This document shows positions 5,709 to 62,113 of a DNA stretch of 64,000 nt, one piece after another (positions within the stretch are counted from its first letter, which is position 1; each line of letters starts with the position of its first letter). Source of the DNA: Aplysia californica (lineage: Eukaryota); contig NW_004797276.1 of NCBI RefSeq assembly GCF_000002075.1, forward strand, positions 2,177,950 to 2,241,949, written 5' to 3'. Both the position numbers and the translations under genes were made by a program. The notes below the pieces were generated by a model, which ran no database searches, was not told where the DNA came from, and saw only the letters and a list, made by a program, of their open reading frames with translations.

Positions 5709-6230
5709 AGTAGCGCCAGAACTTCCGGGCAAAACAAAATGGCAACCCGCGTAGTTCGGCTCGATTCGAAAAGTTAAATAGCCATAGCATCTTTGTAGAC
5801 GACCAAATTAATTTACTTTTGTGTTTTAACATCATCTTTAAACTTTGTTTTGGTCAATTTGATCGTCCACACCGATAGACCGTATTCAGAAAGAGACAGA
5901 TCTAGAGAGAGAGAGAAGAGGGGATGAGTAGATCTTGCGAGAACTTCCAGGCAAAACAAAATGGCGACCCCCGTAGTTCGGCTCGATTCAAAAAGTGAAA
6001 TAGCCATAGCATCTTTGTAGTCGATAAAATTAGCTTACTTTTGTGCTATAACGTAATCTTTTCTTTGCCTTTATCCATTTGATCATCCACATCGATAGAA
6101 AGTATTCCGAAATTAGGAAAAACAGGTCTTGTTTCACACCGGGTGAGAATAGCGTACGGTGGCAAGTCTCACCCCGGGTGAGAGGTCGATCGTATTTCTA
6201 TTCTCACCCCGGGTGAGAATAGCCACTTCC
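5393..6230. mobile_element. MULE/MuDR-like MITE
   Basis: Exact 9-bp TSD taggcgaaa (5384-5392, 6231-6239); GG...CC termini; palindromic CTATTCTCACCCCGGGTGAGAATAG repeats at both ends; internal (GA)n and a ~230-bp duplication. Confidence 0.8.
5634..5705. repeat. (GA)n microsatellite
   Basis: Seen directly. Confidence 0.95.
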
Positions 6231-6239
6231 TAGGCGAAA

Positions 6240-6600
6240 ATGAGTCATGTCCACTGCAAGCCTCTCCCAGACTGTGCTAACCTCCAAATCCCCAGTTTCG
6301 TGTTGTAATGGAGCAGGGTCTATCGACTGACATCTCTTACAATTCTTCACGGCTGATTTCAGTTGTTCCTTTGTCTTTGTTATTGTCGGATCAACTTCCT
6401 TGGCCAGATACCATGACCGTTCAACCCCCATGTGGTGCTGGTTATGCAGATATCCATGACAACGGTACTTTTGTTGCAGCACCGATCGCAGAACTCTCTT
6501 CTTAGTAGGCCTACTCATTTCTGGTTTGCTGGTTTGAGCCAACCACTCTTTCTTTACTCTTGTTAAAGAGTCAGCCTTGTCGTACTTCGAAGGCACGAGA
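6240..6600 (-). mobile_element. Ty3/Gypsy LTR retrotransposon integrase fragment
   Basis: HNQHHMGVERSWYLA...VKNCKRCQSIDPAP...WERLAVDMTHF: HHCC zinc-binding region plus the first catalytic Asp of the rve core. Confidence 0.8.
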
Positions 6601-9544
6601 TATCTAGATCTAATAATAGCCAATGTTACAAACAAACACTACAAAATACAATTTATTAGTCTACAAAAGACTTGAAAAACAAAAAATGCAGTTAATTGTC
6701 ATTAGGATTAGGTTAGGCCTAGGATCAAACGATTGTGTCATTATCGACGTCGAACCAGAGAAAACGAACAGTCATCAAAACATCTAGCCTACCTGGATCA
6801 TTCGAGAGAACTTTGCTTCAAAACAGAAGTTTTCTGTGGTCAAATGAAAATATTTCCTGTAATTCTAACTTAGATTCTAGTGCACTTATGCTCTCTGGGG
6901 TACAAAAGTAAATCTTTGTAAACAGAAAGAAGAGACGTCTTCTGTTTCAGTTTCTTTTACTAAGACTCGAATCCAGTAGGTAATAGAGTTAAAATCGATA
7001 CAAATACTTGCTGCATAGAGCCTATGTATCGGCGCGGAGTGACACAGAATCAAGGAGTTTAGAACTACTGTAAACTCCTTGCACAAAATGAATTGCCATT
7101 CGAGTGCTTGGAATTAATTATGTAATTAGGCCTAGTGTCATACTATTATTTAAGTAAATTATAAGGCTACTTTAAACCACAGACTTGACTGATAACACAT
7201 GATATGAGCAGACTTGACAGCACATTATATAGGTCTATAGTTAAGTACCATATATGTACACAGAAAACAAACGCTTCTTATTATGTCTAATTGTGGACTT
7301 GAACCTCAACACACATGTCTTTCATTTAATTTAATACTATTCTCACCATAGACAGCCCCGTCATCCCACCTCTATACATTTGAAAGCAGTTGGAATAGAC
7401 TGGTAAACCCAGAAAGCAAAATTTTAAGCAACAACAAGAGATTGAAAAAAAAAAACCAAACAAAAACTTCATTCTTTTAAAGATTGTATAACCTATACAT
7501 ATGTACAAGGTGAATTTTTTGTTTTCAAAATTTAGAATTTAAATTTCATCATTTAAAAAAAAAAATTTCTTGAGCAGCAACCGATATGATTTACATATAT
7601 ATATATATATATATGTATCCTATCCTACATGATATGTCCTCATAAAAACTATTATAGGCATCGGGGAGAGAATTAAGAAACGTTATTAAAGAGATTTATA
7701 ATGTTATCTTGTGGACACTAATAAGCAAAGATTGAAAATATCTTAGTAGCAAGCTGGCAATACATACCACATATATATGTATCTTTGGTTTTGCTTTTCT
7801 AATCTCTGAAAATCAAGTAAAGAAAGATTTTTTTAGAAAACAAAACCGAAGCACCTGCATGTCAGTCATAAAATGGAAAGACAAAAGAAGATAAGAGATA
7901 AGCAGTGACAGTGATAAATATGTAGCGACGACTGAAGACAAAAGACTTTTGGACTCCCCACAAAATCAGCGGGGTTTTTTTTCGACCTGGCCTAGTTCCA
8001 AGCTAGTTCTTAGTGTCTAATTGAAGACTCATGGCTAACGAAGTTTTATAGACATTTCTCAAAGATTGGAAAATAAGGTTGAAGGAGTTAGATCTAGCCA
8101 AGGACCTTAATTACAACATAAAATTTGTTAACATCTCTTTTGATCTAACCTCTTGCCTGTACAACAACATTAATATGTAATAAAACAATGTTGGTATCGA
8201 TATTTAAAAGTGTTTGCCCTGATTTTAATCAAAGATCCTGCTTTGTCGAATGTTGCCAAATCAGATTTGCCTCCCAAGCAGAACAAAATTAAACCTAACC
8301 TATTTGGCAAACCAGTTAAAACGCACAAAGGCGCTAAGGTTTTGAACAATTCAGATTTAGATCTACTGCTCTCAGTGTGAAAAGGTGAATGCCCCCCCAA
8401 AAAAAAAGGTCAGGGTAGGCCAAGACTAAGATGGAATTTCTTAAGGATTTGTCAGTTAAAACATGTGTAGATCTAGCAGGGGAAAAGGCAGGGATGATAA
8501 AAGTTTTGAGAGAGAATCTAAGCAGACTGGAGAGCCATGGCGCCGATATCTCTCTCTTTCAGCTATGGCAAGGGGGGAAAAGAAGAACCAAAACACAATA
8601 GCTGGCCATAGATAGAGTCTTGGAGTAATACACTGACAATACGCATGCACAGTGACGATAGATTGAAACACGATAAAAAGACACTCTGCCAATGTTCTGC
8701 ATCTCTTATATTCAAGCTCTATTTCTCTTTAAATATTTTGACATCTCTGGTTATGGGGCTTCTTGGCTTCTTCTTTCTATGTGAAAACTCCACTATTCCC
8801 CGCCCACTAAATCAATCTGGGAACTAAAAGCGAGCCTCGTTTTGGCGGCAAGTCATCAATATTCAACCACCTCCCTATGACTTTTGACCCTATTACATGG
8901 CTAAGTCAACACTCCTCAATCATATCAGCTTTTTCTTTGTTTAAAAAATGATAAAAACATAAAATCGATTGGCTATGTCACAAATATTGAACATATGTAT
9001 ACATTTATTTAAAAAGACCCTGCAAGTTAAAACAATATTTAGGTAGTAGCCACATATCTTCCTCTCATAGTAGGCCTATCTCTTTTTAATAATATAAAAG
9101 CCAGTTCTCATGAACACACATATACATGGCCTCCAGTCAGAGTGCAGGACTCCAGTCTTTTTTTTCTTCACAAAACAGGTAAGCAATACGTAGTAGCAAG
9201 TTCAAGGGTGTAGAACAAAGCCACATTATTTACAAGCACAACATTCCGTATCGTTATCTTGAGTGTTTAAGGTTAAAACGTCCGTTATGCCACCTGAATG
9301 GTTTGAGAATAGATGTTTCTTCCCTGCCTTGCAAAAGATAAATTTCAATGGTAATGTCCTTACAAAGGTCACCTTTTTGTGTATGAAACTGGTTTCCATT
9401 GGATTTTTATGACCCATTACTTCGACGTTTATCCGCTTTGAATTTATATTTTATTCTTTGAGAAACAGTCCTGCAAAGGTTTGGGCTAAGTAAGTGGATT
9501 GGATGTAAAAAGTCTTAATGTTTTATGTGAAACAGAATTAGGAC

Positions 9545-29329: not shown

Positions 29330-29688
29330 GCAACTCTGGTGGCAATTCTTCATTATCACCATCACCATTTCAAGTCCCAGGTGTTCCTGTCAAATATTTT
29401 CGCTGTCCTGTGTGTAGCATCATAATCCGGCACAAGAACAACATTAAGAGACACATGCGTCGACACAATGGTGAAGTTTTTCAATGTGCTTTTTGTGATT
29501 CTACACAGACTTGTCGCTGGCAACTTCAGCGACACTTAGAAACAAAGCATTTCATAACACCTAATGGTGGTGTAGAAGATCAAGCTTCTGAAAATATTGT
29601 TTACCATGAAGAAGAGCTTGAGGATGGAGAGATTGTTTTTGAAATGAAGTATAAGACTGGAATTGAGGACAAGGAAGCCACTGTTTAA
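29330..29688 (+). CDS. Gene B alternative terminal exon V1: tandem C2H2 zinc-finger pair plus acidic tail
   Basis: Acceptor ttctttgcag|GC (phase 1), open frame into CPVC-x12-HMRRH-NGEVF-CAFC-x12-HLETKH, stop TAA at 29688. Confidence 0.85.
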
Positions 29689-29905: not shown

Positions 29906-30186
29906 ATCCTGCTGCTAGCGGCAGTGTTGATGTAAGCAAGGCTTGGGGTCACCATTTTATCAGTGCTCCTCCAGGCACCCAGTTACAAGGTAGTCGCTTG
30001 GTCCGGAACTACAGCTGTCCGATGTGTGGTTTACAGATCTCACACCGAAAGAACATTCGACGCCACATGCGTAAACACACTGGAGAAATGTTCTTCTGTG
30101 ATTTGTGCGACTGGCGAGGCACCTGCAGATGGAAACTTCAAAAGCACAGAGAGAAAAAGCACGGCATCCCTCCATTGACACCCTGA
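29906..30186 (+). CDS. Gene B alternative terminal exon V2: tandem C2H2 zinc-finger pair
   Basis: Acceptor tttgttgcag|AT (phase 1), open frame into CPMC-x12-HMRKH-TGEMF-CDLC-x12-HREKKH, stop TGA at 30186. Confidence 0.85.
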
Positions 30187-41789: not shown

Positions 41790-42450
41790 TAAGCGTCGAG
41801 GGGAGATGCAGTTTTCTATGGTAGGCCAGCTCTGCAGCTCTTTCAGTTGTGATATTGTTTTCTCAGGGTTTCCTTGGCACTCTCGATCCACCTTTTGCGT
41901 GGCCTTCCTCTTCCTTTATAGCCTGAGTGCTTGGTGTTGTAGGTTCTCGAGGCTGGTTGGCCTGGTGACATACGCAACAGGTGACCAAACCGTTTCATTC
42001 TCTGTCTTTCTATGTAATGCAGGCAGGACTCAATGCCGATAGCTGCTCTTATTTCTTCATTTCTCTGCCTGTCTCGTCTTGTGATGTTTTGCAGAGACAT
42101 TTCATTTCGCATGCGGTGATTTTGCTTTCATGGGTTTTACTTAATGTCCAGGTCTGGCACTAATAGCATAATGTTGGTATTAATATCGAGGTGACAAGCT
42201 GTCTCTTTGTGTCCATGGAGGTGTTTGGGTGAGATAGGATGGGTGCAAGCTTGTAGGTGACAGCATTGGCTTTTTGGGTTCGCATTTCTATTTCTCTGTC
42301 TATGGCCTATGGACCCGTCCGTTTTAAGAAAAAGTACTGCCAAGATATATAACTCCTTCACCTGTTCCAGTTGTTTACTAATGACATTTATGTTCAGGGG
42401 ACTATGGTTTCAGCTCACTTTCACAACTTCTGTTTTTGATATGCACAGTT
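41790..42450 (-). mobile_element. RTE-clade LINE 3' fragment, frameshifted
   Basis: LEQVKE...; RDRQRNEEIRAAIGIESCLHYIERQRMKRFGHLLRM...GRGRPRKRWIE, the typical RTE post-RT C-terminal motif. Confidence 0.85.
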
Positions 42451-44660: not shown

Positions 44661-44726
44661 CTTGCTAAAACTAAAGACCCAGACCTTACCGTTGGTGAGC
44701 GCCACCAATAGGTCCTACTTTTTTGT

Positions 44727-45077
44727 GGCGTCGGTGGCCTAGTGGTTAGGCTCTCGGGCTCGCAACTGCAAGATCGTGGGTTCGAATCCCGTCAGGGGCC
44801 CGACGTTGTGTCCTTGGGAAAGGCACTTGCAAAAATTTCCCTCACTTCTCTCAGGTGGAAATAGGTACCCGGCTATAGACTGTGAATGATCTTGTCAGTT
44901 TGATAGTGTTTGAGCGCGTAAAATCTGCAGCTTGCACTGTATGCTTCCGCCGAAGCCGAGAATGTTTCAGAGTGTTCTCAGAGGGTCTGCTGGTGTAATA
45001 ATGGTTATAAAGCGCATAGAGCATACTCCTGAGCATGGATATATGCACTATATAAATACAGTTATTATTATTATTAC
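44727..45077 (+). mobile_element. tRNA-derived SINE
   Basis: Pol III A box TGGCCTAGTGG, B box GGTTCGAATCC, central GTTGTGTCCTTGGGAAAGGCAC/AAATAGGTACC segment, LINE-like tail aagcgcatagagc...(tta)n. Confidence 0.85.
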
Positions 45078-45838
45078 TTTTTCACTTTTCCTCTGTTGTT
45101 TGTGTCTGTCAGTCTTACTTTTTCTCAAATAAATGACGATTATTATGTCGATTTGTTTCTCTTTACCCAAACAAAATCCAGACCAATCCTAACAAATCTC
45201 ATAGCACTTTACTAAATGTAGCAAAAGTGTTGTAGTCCCTACTTGCTTTTCAACTCGTTCACACCAAATCATTATGATGGCAAAAGGGTTTTCAATTCTC
45301 TCACATTTTTTTAATGTCAAAACTGAGAGATGGTAATAACTTATGGTAGAGATGAGTTTTAGTGGTAATGGCAGTGTGGTCATTGTAAACAAGGATGAAT
45401 CACTATGCATGAAGTGACAAAGGTTTCATCTTCATTCTATTTTTCGGAAGAGTCGCCCTCAAGAAGTGCTTCTATAATGAAAGAAAAAAGTGCATGGTGG
45501 AACATTTAAACGGCTTTTGTTAGATTAAACATTTTTGGAAATGAAACAAGACTTTAGTTTGTCATAATGAGGCTGCCATTGGTTAAGTGTGTGTATTTCG
45601 TCTTTATGTGTAAGGAATGGATTCAGTTTTCCAGCTTTTTAGCCACCAAGCAAGATTGTTTCTCATAACAACTAGATTTTTATATTGAAAGCTGGAAGAT
45701 TCCCAGTATGTTCTTATTCATTTAACTGGCACTCTTGGATTAACATGCGTTTGAATTCAGACTTTGCTAGAAGTGTTCGATTGTGGGAAGACAGATGAGG
45801 CAAGGCTGTCGTCACTGATAAGTCCTCCCCCTTTTCAG

Positions 45839-46015
45839 CCTTGCGGGCTCTGCATGCAGACTCCGAGCACCTCGTCCGTACATCCCCGGTCTCCTCCCCT
45901 GCTGACTTGATACAGGATGATTTCGAAATGTCGGCAGGGGTGTCTGCTGGTGCTAAGGATGATCCCTTTATCCACACTGCCAGGCAGACAAAATGGGCAG
46001 TCGCTCGAGCCAGAG
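45839..46015 (+). CDS. Gene B module V3 exon a: linker plus start of DUF3504/Crypton-like region (TARQTKWAVARAR)
   Basis: Acceptor ccccttttcag|CC (phase 1), donor AGA G|gtgagt (phase 1). Splices in frame to 46890 giving TKWAVARAREWL, matching the N-terminal motif of Crypton-derived KCTD1/QRICH1/ZMYM-type domains. Confidence 0.8.
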
Positions 46016-46889
46016 GTGAGTTCTGGTTTTATCTTTTTTGTGTTAGTCAAATAAAAATGGTTGTTCCTGGAGGTTGTATGATGTAAAACCTATTTTTCTC
46101 CCAACAAAATTTCCATGTGTCATGGAAACTTTTGGAACACCATGTGGAATAAAATCTTATAAAGTTTTTCTCACAGCTTGGAGTTTAAGTAAAGTATGAA
46201 AGTAAATGTAAATGTTCATTATAAGGGCTGTTACTTTAGCAAAGGGGAAGTGTTCCACTTGTGTGTGTGTGTGGGGGGGGTGTAATCAAGTGCATTAGTT
46301 AGAATTACGGTAATGGTATTGATGTGAAGTATATAGTAATTTTGAATCAATTTTTTAAGAAAGAATCCTGCTCTATTTTTCATATCGATGTATGATGAAC
46401 CGGATTGCAATAGTAGTATTTTGATATTGATACCTTTTGGCTACAGTTGAAATGTTTGAAGTCATGCCTTGTGAAATGTGGTAGTTTTTTTTATACTGAT
46501 AATGACATTTTGTCTTTAAAAAGCTTAAAAGGTGATTTAGATCATAAGTCTTTTGGTTGCAAAAGTGGAATGTGATGCTATTTATATTGTGGAATACTAC
46601 AACTTTTAAAAACTTTGTTTTCTCCTAGGTTTGTTTAATACAGTGTTTATTCCTTTATGGTGTCATTGTTCTTTTGGGCAGTTCCTTTGGTATAGATTTT
46701 TTTCTTAATCGCAAAAATTACAGTTCTGGTTACACTTTTGAATTCTGACTTTAAAGTTCCATGCATGCTTTGAAAACTTTTGTTTGGGTTTTTTAGGTTA
46801 TTTTAGATTCCTTCATTAAGCAATTTTATTAGTCTGGCGAAATTTACAAGATTTAGTTAGTTGATTCCGAATTTTTTCCCCGTTTTCAG

Positions 46890-47668
46890 AATGGCTGACT
46901 AACCATGGTATGAGCCCAGAATTTGAGATATTCACGGAGACACAGCTGAACCAGATGATGGCAGGCTTCTATACAACTGGACAGAAAAAAGGTGGAGCTC
47001 CTTTTTCTGCCACAGCTCTGCTGGCATTTCGAACAGCCGTGAACAGACACTTAAATAAGTGTGGGCGTCAAATCAGCCTTGCGACATCACATGCTTTTAA
47101 AGAATCAAATGCTGTCCTGGCCAGAATTCAGTCAACGTCGGTCAGAATAAGTAAGACTATTTCTGTGGGTGACATTAAATTGTTGTACTCCAATGGTACC
47201 TTGTCTAACTCAAACCCTCAGTCCTTGCTTCATAAAGTTTGGTTCGAGCTTCAGATTCATTTTCGAGCTAAGATTGACTGGAGTCAAGTGAGCGCTGAAC
47301 AGTTCTTTTTTTCACATGATCCCTTGGGTCGTGTGGTAGTCACATGGAACACACGAGGCTACGGCAACTGTAATGAAGTGACTATGATAGAACCCAATGG
47401 AGGCCCTTATTGCCCTGTTCAGTCTCTTCGTCTCTACCTGCAACACCGTAACCGGAGCCACAAGGCCTTTCTGCAAGTACCTGTTGCTCGGCTGGACAGT
47501 CCGTCATCTGCCTGGTATCTGCCTGAAGAAGTCCGTGACCACAAGGAGAAGCAGATGATGAAAAAGATCTCTGCCCTGGGCAAGCTGAGCCAGATATACA
47601 CCAACGCCTGTGTGCTGGCCAGCTTTGAGGAGCACTTTCAAGCAATCTCTAGCTTCAAGCCTGTGTGA
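46890..47668 (+). CDS. Gene B module V3 exon b: DUF3504 / Crypton tyrosine-recombinase-derived domain, catalytically inactive; terminal exon
   Basis: Acceptor cgttttcag|AA (phase 1). Motifs LNQMMAGFY, TAVNRHL, FKESNAVL, PQSLLHKVWFELQIHF, CPVQSLRLYL, FLQVP, WY, MMKKISALGKLSQIYTN. Stop TGA at 47668. Confidence 0.85.
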
Positions 47669-47960
47669 TTTCTCTTTTCAGTGTTAGCTGATGTCTCTGT
47701 GCCAAAAAGCCCATAATAATGTGATCCCAGATGGAAGTATATGTTAAAAATGTTTTAATATTTAAGACAAACTTGGATTTCCCATAGTACTGTGCTTGTA
47801 CTTGTTTTTCTGTGTTGTCTGGATAAACTTCAGAGGTAGTAGATAAAGGTTTTTTTTCTCTCCACAAACTGCAACTGAGTTTACCTTCCTCAGTTTTTTT
47901 TTTTTATTACTTTTGCTAAAGATTTTGAAAGGAAAAATTATTTATTGACTTTATATTGAT

Positions 47961-58328: not shown

Positions 58329-58420
58329 ATGATGCCACGGCTGGCCCTCCCCCAAGGATGCCTGATGGTGTGAAGCCTCTCTGTGGGTATGTGCACCATG
58401 AAGATGCTGAAAAGTGGATG
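58329..58420 (+). CDS. Gene B module V4 (BEN domain) exon a
   Basis: Acceptor cctccccccag|AT (phase 1; a second in-frame acceptor at 58296), reads DATAGPPPRMPDGVKPLCGYVHHEDAEKWM, donor |gtgagt (phase 0) matching the phase-0 acceptor at 59794. Confidence 0.7.
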
Positions 58421-59793
58421 GTGAGTAGACACATCATCTAGACTAGTCTGTCCCTGGGGTGTGAAAGCCACATGTGTGTGTGGGTGCCCGCAGAAAGATC
58501 CCAGTAGTCGGAAATTTTGGATGTTGAATTAAGGGCATATTCTTATAAGCAAATGTGATGCTGAACACGCTTCTTTTAATTTTTTTCAAAAATCTTGAGT
58601 AGTTTTAAAGATATGCCACATTTTGTAACACAGTGTAAAAACAAAGTTTGGAGAAGAACCCAATTTCTAACACATTTTTAACATTTGGTGAAATACATGT
58701 TGCAAAAACATGATATAAAAAAAGTTATCTAGACTTAGAATATTATAAAATCTTTTCAGTATGTTATTAAAATGTCATGTAAAATTGCAATATTATGTCA
58801 TAAATGTGTCAATAACAAAGCTCCCTCATATCTTAGTGATCGCATCCAGATTTATATGTGTGTGAATATTTTTGGTAAAGGGCCTAGAGCTGTGTTCACA
58901 CGTGAGTGGGCGCTATAGAAATGATCTACATTATTATTATTATTGTTATTATTATTAAGAAATGGCTAAACGTGGGTTTTCTGATGGAACTATATTTTTG
59001 ACCAGGTACAACTTTTATGGCCTTTTCATCCTGTTGCTTAAAAATAGATTTGCCGACAACTGGGACCTTTCTCCAGACACACACATATATGTCATTATCA
59101 AAGTGCAATGTGTACATCTGGCTAGCAGTGGAGCAATTTTACGTGAGGAAGGGCTGTACAACTCGGGCAGTTGGCAGATGGCAGGTTGAAGTTGAAGGAG
59201 CTGAAAGTGTGTTTATATAGATGTTCCTTTTTGTGTTTTGCTCTTCTCTTTTTTTTTCAAATGTGTTTATGTTGTACCATTAACTGATTAATAAAAAGAA
59301 GAAGAATAGATTGCATTAATGTAGTGCTCGATCCCATAAGAGTATAAGCTCTGAGCGCTTTACATCGATGACATGATCACAGAGCAGTTTGCATGGAAAA
59401 ATGTAGGGCTCTGATATTTCTCTGAATTCCAAATTTTAGGGCAAAAAATGAGAACTTTTCCCTCCAAAAAATCTTAATTTCATTCTAGGGGCTCTGAATT
59501 TTGTTGCATCTGTGAATGACCATAACTGATGAGACAGAACACACAGTGTTAAAACCTCAAACAGATATGGTGGAACATTATTTTTATAACAGATGGTAGA
59601 GACTTTAAATTTGATTCTTTTTTCTACTGAAAGTCAGTGCAGAGCTTTTAACATTTTTTGGTGCAGGATAATTATAATACAAACGTGGTTTTAAAGAGAT
59701 TTATGGAAAACTGTTGAGAATGATACTGCTCGCTACACATGCTGATCGGTTTTTTTCGCAAGTAAATTACCCGTACCTTGACATTGTCCCCAG

Positions 59794-59900
59794 ATGATAG
59801 AACTGCTTCCTGGTTCAGGCGTGTTTATTCATCAGGAGAACTACAACGTGGTCATGTCCAAGACGAGGCAAGACCGGCCGGATGGAAAGGCCATGGCAAG
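59794..59900 (+). CDS. Gene B module V4 (BEN domain) exon b
   Basis: ttgtccccag|ATG ATA GAA CTG CTT CCT GGT TCA GGC GTG TTT ATT (IELLPGSGVFI, typical of the segment before BEN domains) ... KAMA AG|gtctgt (phase 2). Confidence 0.75.
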
Positions 59901-61902
59901 GTCTGTGCTTTGGGGTGAAATAGAGGGACTTTCATTTCTGCCTCATTTTGTTATGCGTGTTCCTGCTCTTTGGTTTTATCTGAAGACTGGTCATTATTTT
60001 TATTTTATTTTGTGTCTCACAATTCTGGTGTACTGGTGAAAGTACACAATTCGGTGGCGTTTATGATATTGTATTCGGCTTCATTCGGCTTTCCCCAGTC
60101 CGAGAGTACGTTTCACTCGAATAAGCGGCTATGGCGGCAGGCGAAACTAGGTGTAATACTGAAACTCCATCGGGTGAATCAAAATTTAAAAACACAGTGT
60201 TGCCATACAAATTAAATCGATATTCTTACTGATGTCACTATAATGACCAAAAAAAAAAAGAAGGAAGAAAAAGAAAACAAGTGTCCTCCGATTTCTAGAT
60301 TGTCTGGCTCGTCATTGAACCTGTGAGAGTTAATGAGTATGGCATGAGTAAGGAACCGTCCGTTGGTTGTTGGGGAAGGCCTAATCAAAGTTTATTCAAA
60401 GTAGGCGTGTTGCAGGGCTTCGGATTTGAGGGGAGGTGTTTGACGCAATAAAGTCTACGGCAGCAGGAAAAGGCCGCAGTGCAAGAAACTGATGCTAAAT
60501 TAAGAACGATAAGTGGAAGTGGTTTTGACATTTGACAATCGAGTGCGTAAAGGAGGGAACATTAGAGAACTGGCTTGATGATTGTATCTTCAAGGTTGGT
60601 GTTCCCAGATTTGTCAGTGATGACAAATTGAATAGTGGCAATGAGGAAATGCCTTTTTCAACCCTCGGAAAGCTCTATGTTGGATGCCTATATGGATCAT
60701 GATGGCTTGTTGCTGATTAAAAACTGGTACTGTGATTTAGCATTTTGAAAAAAAATCAATACTTAGTCCATGATGCAGTGATTCACTGATTGCCAGCATC
60801 ACTACATCCCATGCTCTCACAGTCTTTCCAGCTCCGGCTCTCAGTACACACTCTCTTTTATTTTCCCTTTTTGCTCTGCCGTGAGCCTGACTATAAAGGT
60901 TTTATAAATAAGTTTTGTCTTGCATGCTTTTTAAAATCCGTGATTACTGAAACCAAACATGGTTTTGGCAGTTGGTGTTCTTCTTGCCTCTCCTAAGGCC
61001 CAGATCAGGATTAGTTTTTTATTTTTAGGGTAAAACTAGTTAAAATTAATTGTTTTGTCATACCTAAGTCACGAAGGACTTATCAGTGTCCTATACTAGT
61101 GTCGGGAAATATGTTTTAATATAGTTTGTATTTGTATGGGCTAGGGGTTTTGAAGTTAATTTGGCTGTCATCCTGCACTCAATTCCAGATTCAATACTGA
61201 ATGATAAGTGCCTTGGACGATAGTCCATAAATGCTTTTAAAAAAAAAAAGCTCGCCTCATTTCATACACACTTCATCTTAACTTGTGCATACCCAAACAC
61301 CCCCTTCCCCTCCCCACATATATAAACATACGCGAGAACATGCCCACGTGTACACACAGACACACACATACATGTGCATGCACAAATAGTTTTCAAAATA
61401 TAAGTACCCAATATCCCGGACAGCAATCGCGTTCGACGAGGCAACGATTATCTTTTTTTCTCTTCTTTGTTTTTGTACTACCTGATTTTGGGCCAAATTA
61501 CCTGAAAATGACCCTGAATCTACCTGAAATGGGAACTTTAAGGTAGGCAGCCTTACATATGAGACACTGTACTTTGAGAAGTCAGCCAAGTGCTCTTGGA
61601 TTCTACTTTCTTGTTGTCTTTAGAGAATATCAAATGATCAGTTTTGTGGGGGGGGGATTCAGAATGTGATTGACTGTGATTTATGGTTCTCTGTTTTTAC
61701 GTACAATCTGCCAATTATTTTTCAAATACAAAGGGGAAAGGAGATTTGATAGGAGAGTTGTTTAAATTTCCCCATGAAACGGAGTTGCAATGACTTAAAA
61801 CAATTTTTGGATTTTTGGTGTGTGTGCGTGTTGGCAGGGTTACATTGAGTTGAGTTCTTTTTTAAAATATGTCCTAGTTCTGTTATTGCCTTGTCTTTCC
61901 AG

Positions 61903-62015
61903 GTACCTCATGTCATGTTTCTGGAGACAAAGTGAATTAGTGGGTGCCAGTATTGCAGAGCCTCCCAAGCCTCATCAGAAATCACTGGATAGGGGCATTG
62001 TGCACGCTATTTTAG
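61903..62015 (+). CDS. Gene B module V4 (BEN domain) exon c; domain continues downstream
   Basis: ttgtctttccag|G completes the Arg codon: MARYLMSCFWRQSELVGASIAEPPKPHQKSLDRGIVHAIL fits the BEN consensus (AR-xL-xxFF-xxEL-xxxS...LD-xxxx-AI). Donor G|gtgag. Confidence 0.75.
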
Positions 62016-62113
62016 GTGAGAAGCTGCTCTTTGTACAACCATAAGAGAAACTGCAATAGTTTACTCTCTGTTCTGTTGTAATTTGTTAACCTTTGTGTGT
62101 TGTCAAACATATT

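Follow-up and report, generated by a model that had tools for sequence, protein, structure and literature searches.

The locus studied here raises the question of whether a host gene of Aplysia californica has taken up a Crypton tyrosine recombinase as an alternative set of exons and kept it after its catalytic residues were lost. Within the window (the whole stretch of 64,000 nucleotides that was analysed), the first exon of the recombinase module (45839..46015, + strand) is 177 nt long, is in phase 1 at each end and follows an acceptor AG at 45837-45838; it encodes a linker and the first helix of the core-binding domain, and its boundaries are taken from the sequence, from loose ends of mapped contigs and from RefSeq isoform X3. 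A GT..AG intron of 874 nt (46016..46889, +) separates it from the terminal coding exon (46890..47668, +), which ends in TGA and encodes, by prediction, the core-binding domain and an incomplete catalytic domain, both of the CryptonA tyrosine-recombinase type. When 45839-46015 and 46890-47668 are spliced, the frame is open for 317 codons and then stops, in agreement with the exact coordinates and the intact frame of about 318 amino acids across an intron that had been predicted from the letters of the DNA. Translation of the second exon gives a protein with 100% identity to the C-terminal part of XP_035824961.1 (A. californica LOC101859451, isoform X3), a model that starts with the window exons at 20570 and 22470.

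Splicing was checked by mapping four sequencing runs on 45400-47960. Contigs of runs X12 and X13, which come from two studies and whose RNA status is in both cases the guess of the tool, lack the 874-nt intron, as does one raw read of run X22. At 45839 the X12 and X13 contigs carry a loose end of 30 nt identical to 22641-22670, the last 30 nt of the upstream constant exon B; this stretch occurs once in the window and is followed by GTAAGT in the genome. These contigs join 22670 to 45839, confirming the proposed splicing to the constant exons, and they cover the 3' untranslated region (47669..47960, +) without a break, the region itself extending beyond 47960. The module is thus transcribed and spliced into a host mRNA, as seen in the guessed-RNA contigs and, for the internal intron, in one raw polyA read. 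Two raw polyA runs of about 15 million reads each yielded 0 (X21) and 3 (X22) module reads, one of the latter spanning the intron, so the module isoform is rare in these samples; with 0 reads there, X21 is no test of splicing. Among the window ORFs of at least 110 amino acids there was no long transposon ORF, consistent with the description of neighbouring transposon frames as broken.

The module had been assigned to the DUF3504 family of Crypton descent, and this assignment stood by homologues and fold but not by Pfam. With hmmscan, Pfam DUF3504 (PF12012) matched the module at E=0.12 and 12.8 bits, below the 29.7-bit cut-off, and did not match the full isoform; closer relatives P0008 and P0020 scored 21.9 and 25 bits, and the module was not among the six genome places matched by the Pfam DUF3504 profile. 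A search of the whole library with the module retrieved 743 relatives at E<=0.001. The intact recombinase P0021 matches it at E 5.6e-23, so the module is homologous to intact CryptonA-type recombinases, and a reciprocal search of the Aplysia genome with an intact recombinase returned the module exon as the best place (E 1.7e-24). Two scanned relatives with the full R-H-R-H-Y set match both DUF3504 and Phage_integrase in Pfam.

A first fold predicted from 6 sequences was discarded (pLDDT 55), and prediction from 96 sequences gave a structure with a pLDDT of 94.5, a model that leans to the relatives' fold because they dominate the alignment. The predicted model has a tyrosine-recombinase fold, with a core-binding and a catalytic domain. 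Its best structural match was QRICH1 in 9HJT (Zincore-ZFP91-DNA; Foldseek E 1.5e-8; Z 13.9, rmsd 15.9, 232 aligned), followed by Cre-type and Xer recombinases (for Cre, Z 11.7, rmsd 6.2, 228 aligned). A profile search of solved chains also ranked QRICH1 first (E 2.6e-9), a rank that was to be expected since QRICH1 was the only DUF3504-type chain returned by these searches. By sequence comparison and predicted fold, the module is a CryptonA tyrosine recombinase.

We then compared the module with its relatives at the catalytic columns, where 43 of the best 150 (of 743) carry the full R-H-R-H-Y. Against these, the loss of catalytic residues was borne out. The motifs HFRAKID and YTNACVL are both present as quoted in the original prediction; the first-Arg loop is shortened and the GxRxxE motif broken, A-C-V-L replaces H-x-x-R, and the stop comes 21 residues beyond the Asn of YTNACVL, ahead of the His and the Tyr, leaving the module without the catalytic R-H-R-(H)-Y of an active CryptonA. 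Judged from its sequence by established recombinase chemistry, catalysis by the module is excluded. An enzyme or mobile Crypton that is still active would fit the complete core-binding domain, the retention of most of the catalytic fold and the one Arg that sits near the first motif in Aplysia; that Arg, however, is missing from Elysia, both HxxR and the His/Tyr segment are gone and a single genome copy was found, so that we give this reading virtually no credence.

Genome searches with the module gave one match by protein (three candidates scored) and one by DNA, each to be read as at least one. The many near-identical dispersed copies of an active element family were thus not observed, the counts being lower bounds. 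With an intact recombinase as query, four genome places were retrieved, namely the module exon and three on contig C705, and the six places matched by the Pfam DUF3504 profile lie on C187, C705 and C364; in our reading the places on these three contigs are WOC-type and other host genes. An intact Crypton was not found in the genome with these queries (module, intact recombinase and Pfam family). Degenerate DUF3504-type host genes were located at C705 25549-33496 (+), C705 69048-71177 (-), C364 near 49527 and C187 701132-704222; one contains an intron, two are KIAA1958-like by our own reading and the one on C187 is of the WOC type. Elsewhere among the relatives, P0013, P0015, P0018, P0019, P0056, P0085 and L044-L046 form a tight clade with a degenerate DUF3504 and a common altered first motif, likely another domestication. 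Fusions of ATF7IP to recombinase domains (P0040, P0052 and P0099) fall in two separate tree clades, and P0052 and P0099 retain all five catalytic residues, which suggests that ATF7IP captured a recombinase repeatedly.

The host gene into which the module is spliced begins with constant coding exon A (20552..21338, +; ATG at 20570), whose boundaries are drawn from the sequence and RefSeq models, not from reads. It encodes an unnamed N-terminal domain of about 78 amino acids and a low-complexity linker, and has alternative donors near 21032 and 21209. Constant exon B (22470..22670, +) provides the phase-1 donor that joins the alternative modules. Besides the recombinase pair, these include a predicted terminal exon with two C2H2 fingers by Pfam (29330..29688, +), placed by sequence and a homologue, the Candidula isoform P0169, which it matches at 89% and in which the same tail is joined to the constant part. 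A second candidate terminal exon with two C2H2 fingers (29906..30186, +) came from a scan for phase-1 acceptors. The first three exons of a BEN-type module (58329..62017, +) were placed with RefSeq isoforms X1 and X2 by tblastn, the last exon lying just beyond the window; this tail had no Pfam match, and its BEN label is taken from UniRef names of orthologues. A phase-1 acceptor precedes each of the tails in the window (both C2H2 exons, the recombinase pair, the BEN exons), and all modules seen at the locus sit on one strand.

The constant N-terminal domain matches no Pfam family and is given no name by the Atlas, where a structural match places it in four mollusc clusters; C2H2 fingers abound in two of these. 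In sixteen proteins that carry it, one and the same junction point leads into a recombinase tail, a C2H2 tail or a tail labelled BEN or HTH. The query used did not recover the HTH tail, which occurs in Biomphalaria, Elysia and others, from the Aplysia genome. At the orthologous locus of Biomphalaria, Bulinus, Physella, Elysia and Plakobranchus, this tail is CENP-B/Brinker-like by weak Pfam matches (P0162-P0168, P0173, P0175) and is possibly a second transposon-derived tail. The genome holds at least six genes with the N-terminal domain, four of them on the window's contig: a head-to-head pair inside the window (20570-20803, +, and 1432-2028, -) and two at 2315295 and 2399567 of the same contig (G000:C6), with others on C89 and C420. 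One neighbouring paralogue is followed on the same strand by 25 ORFs with C2H2 motifs (L015-L020, minus strand, about 97-146 kb past the window end), which from their sequence are likely the alternative terminal exons of a lola-like gene.

In Drosophila, lola and mod(mdg4) splice constant N-terminal exons, which encode a BTB domain, to many alternative DNA-binding 3' exons. The Aplysia locus is alike in architecture, with constant exons and alternative DNA-binding 3' exons, the recombinase junction being the only one checked with reads; it differs in that its constant domain matches no Pfam family. No BTB match was obtained by Pfam in the constant part or the full isoform, so the BTB oligomerisation domain of the Drosophila genes was not recovered, and a homodimer prediction for the N-terminal domain (score 0.01) speaks neither way.

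The module is also present in other gastropods. In Biomphalaria glabrata, RefSeq has the same join of constant part to module, with 62% identity in exon 2; a partial model of Candidula has the same join and ends exactly where module exon 1 ends; in Elysia marginata a model standing alone carries the module, at 63%; and in the caenogastropod Babylonia areolata the same N-terminal domain is fused to a related module. Orthologues of the module stand at 54-63% identity, and in these gene models the module is retained across lineages at the level of the host gene. The capture is hence gastropod-wide and not limited to the Aplysia genome, and since the same fusion occurs in Biomphalaria, Candidula and Babylonia it predates the split between Heterobranchia and Caenogastropoda, roughly 400 million years ago. 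The simplest reading is one capture before that split and a later duplication. A second dead recombinase module, further diverged, is fused to the N-terminal domain in P0064 and is also carried by P0091; it is sister to the module studied here, suggesting that it arose by exon duplication. A Biomphalaria model in which the module is joined to BEN exons (P0003) was set aside as probably an artefact of prediction; the mapped Aplysia runs showed neither this joint nor a matching loose end. A metagenome scan for orthologue DNA returned at least three loci, at 30-32% and of another lineage.

As a surrogate for dN/dS, a simulation of neutral drift by random substitution down to 62% identity left the frame free of stops in 2 of 500 runs, with indels ignored, which points to purifying selection on the module. 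A neutral transposon fossil lying in an intron and caught by occasional splicing noise would explain why raw reads are so few, but it sits poorly with this simulation and with the open frame and identical splice in the models of Aplysia, Biomphalaria, Candidula (exon 1 only) and Babylonia, and we hold it to be very improbable. Splicing, single copy, homology, catalytic loss and the same fusion in other gastropods together support domestication by exon capture, and we are highly confident that the module has been domesticated.

The ancestry of the module was addressed with IQ-TREE on subsets of 40 and 37 rows from 152, Babylonia having been added to the 37-row set; an earlier FastTree placement of the module clade near the outgroup, among long branches, was superseded by these trees. 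In the 37-row tree, nine fused or related module rows form one clade (97/95), nested in a 31-row clade with intact recombinases (100/99), and KCTD1 lies outside. AU tests did not reject a grouping of the module clade with KCTD1 (p=0.242 and p=0.084), and deep branches are poorly resolved. The claim that this capture is separate from the vertebrate genes therefore leans on context: it finds support in the host gene, in an architecture that differs from WOC/ZMYM/QRICH1 and from KCTD1, and in the best trees, but the AU tests fall short of rejecting the KCTD1 grouping. The module might instead have been copied from an older domesticated DUF3504 gene of the host (KCTD1-type, bivalve-type or another Aplysia gene), an origin that fits either function considered below. 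Other DUF3504 loci do exist on C187, C705 and C364, branches are long, the AU tests leave the KCTD1 clade standing, and one tree joined a bivalve-type row at 95/94. That bivalve link disappeared once rows were added, whereas the best trees set the fused clade among intact recombinases, apart from KCTD1, WOC and the C705 genes; KCTD1 acquired its domain, a single exon upstream of a BTB gene, in jawed vertebrates (PMC3212892); and the intron site agrees with intact elements. We regard such a copy as unlikely. An aromatic residue is aligned at the start of exon 2 in 106 of 148 relatives, and 10 of the 24 intact relatives with an aligned residue have an intron-end-like start at the same site and phase, as judged from proteins. 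The transposon thus likely brought the intron with it, its position being inherited from an intron-bearing Crypton.

Capture of a dead Crypton recombinase as an alternative exon is already known. The covered sections of PMC3212892 describe four animal Crypton domestications, ATF7IP and a tunicate candidate, and for Aplysia WOC fragments only. There, as here, a CryptonA region was captured as an isoform-specific exon in KIAA1958 isoforms a/b, KCTD1 isoform b and the Crypton exon of ATF7IP; KIAA1958 likewise has alternative DUF3504 exons, and KIAA1958 and KCTD1 lost the catalytic Tyr and second Arg. The DUF3504 exons of KCTD1 and KIAA1958 are intron-less and vertebrate, whereas the Aplysia module is intron-bearing, truncated and gastropod, and the three genes have other partner domains, in contrast to the C2H2, BEN and HTH tails with which the module alternates. 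WOC, ZMYM2-4 and QRICH1 (a Zincore subunit, PDB 9HJT) have the dead Crypton recombinase fold in common with the module and include its best structural match, but are bilaterian-wide, constitutive, multi-intron and 15% identical, and the WOC-type gene of Aplysia is a separate one, on C187. Host-transposase fusions, in the portion of bioRxiv 10.1101/2020.05.07.082677 covered, similarly have a transposon enzyme domain spliced onto a host regulatory N-terminus; those are tetrapod and mostly KRAB, unlike the tyrosine recombinase and unnamed mollusc domain seen here.

Several DUF3504 genes occur in the majority of animal genomes, those of molluscs among them (PMC13465315, sections covered), and among 50 long matches six carry BTB and others C2H2 or MYM fingers, indicating that degenerate DUF3504 fusions recur. 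The main text of PMC10027918, on transposon-derived factors in metazoans, does not mention Crypton or DUF3504, and no paper on this locus, its names or its architecture came up in the literature searched. The Aplysia case is a further, apparently undescribed instance, in an unusual host locus. With exon capture of dead Crypton recombinases established and degenerate fusions common, it will strike the specialist as neat rather than startling; the few published Crypton domestications gain an old invertebrate case that spans a whole lineage, and a multi-isoform gene family of molluscs comes to light, with an unnamed domain, of which our searches returned no description. In this case the dead recombinase can be swapped for ordinary DNA-binding domains behind one N-terminus, so that the role of a DUF3504-type domain becomes directly testable, with sister isoforms as built-in controls in two laboratory snails, Aplysia and Biomphalaria.

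As to mechanism, a Crypton would have landed downstream of the constant exons in an ancestral gastropod, been recruited through a phase-1 acceptor with its own intron retained, and been deprived of its His/Tyr segment at the C-terminus. With its core-binding and catalytic domains the protein may then grip DNA as recombinases do, without cutting, and so position the constant N-terminal domain on chromatin, the presumed action of the C2H2, BEN and HTH sister tails as well. As all sister tails are of DNA-binding types, this non-catalytic DNA binding is the most likely role and, by analogy, a reasonably probable one. A helix at residues 37-56, which we take to be the recognition helix by analogy with Cre, is among the best-kept segments (80-85% in the three nearest orthologues, 65% in Babylonia and 20-45% in three intact recombinases), and the module pI remains basic at 8.2-9.8; kept core helices may reflect folding only, and a shared fold alone shows no function.

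The module could also have been domesticated as a protein-interaction cofactor, a Zincore-like clamp on DNA-bound zinc-finger proteins, among them perhaps the C2H2 isoforms encoded by its gene family, and would itself read sequence with little specificity. QRICH1 in 9HJT is the top match by structure and profile, the locus and its neighbours hold many C2H2 exons, BTB or zinc fingers are frequent fusion partners of degenerate DUF3504 domains in the matches, and Zincore, as its titles indicate, shows a DUF3504 protein to be able to act as a zinc-finger cofactor rather than a sequence reader. Against this, the identity to QRICH1 is low, as given above, and the tree puts the module with KCTD1/ATF7IP-type and intact recombinases and at a distance from WOC, which leaves the clamp the main, though somewhat doubtful, alternative to DNA binding. 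A broader and distinctly improbable proposal is a gastropod lola-like transcription-factor system, with an N-terminal hub and swappable tails derived in part from transposon capture, in which the dead Crypton tail would pair with zinc-finger isoforms from its own family and hold them on DNA, so that Zincore would have been invented a second time, independently, inside one gene.

Remnants of other elements were also noted in the window. A Pfam scan of a few window fragments gave a weak integrase zinc-binding domain as its sole match (E=0.063), in a broken retrotransposon-like fragment at 6204-6638 (-); a second such fragment, at 41843-42127 (-), was called by eye, as was a tRNA-like, SINE-looking repeat at 44690-45080, upstream of module exon 1.
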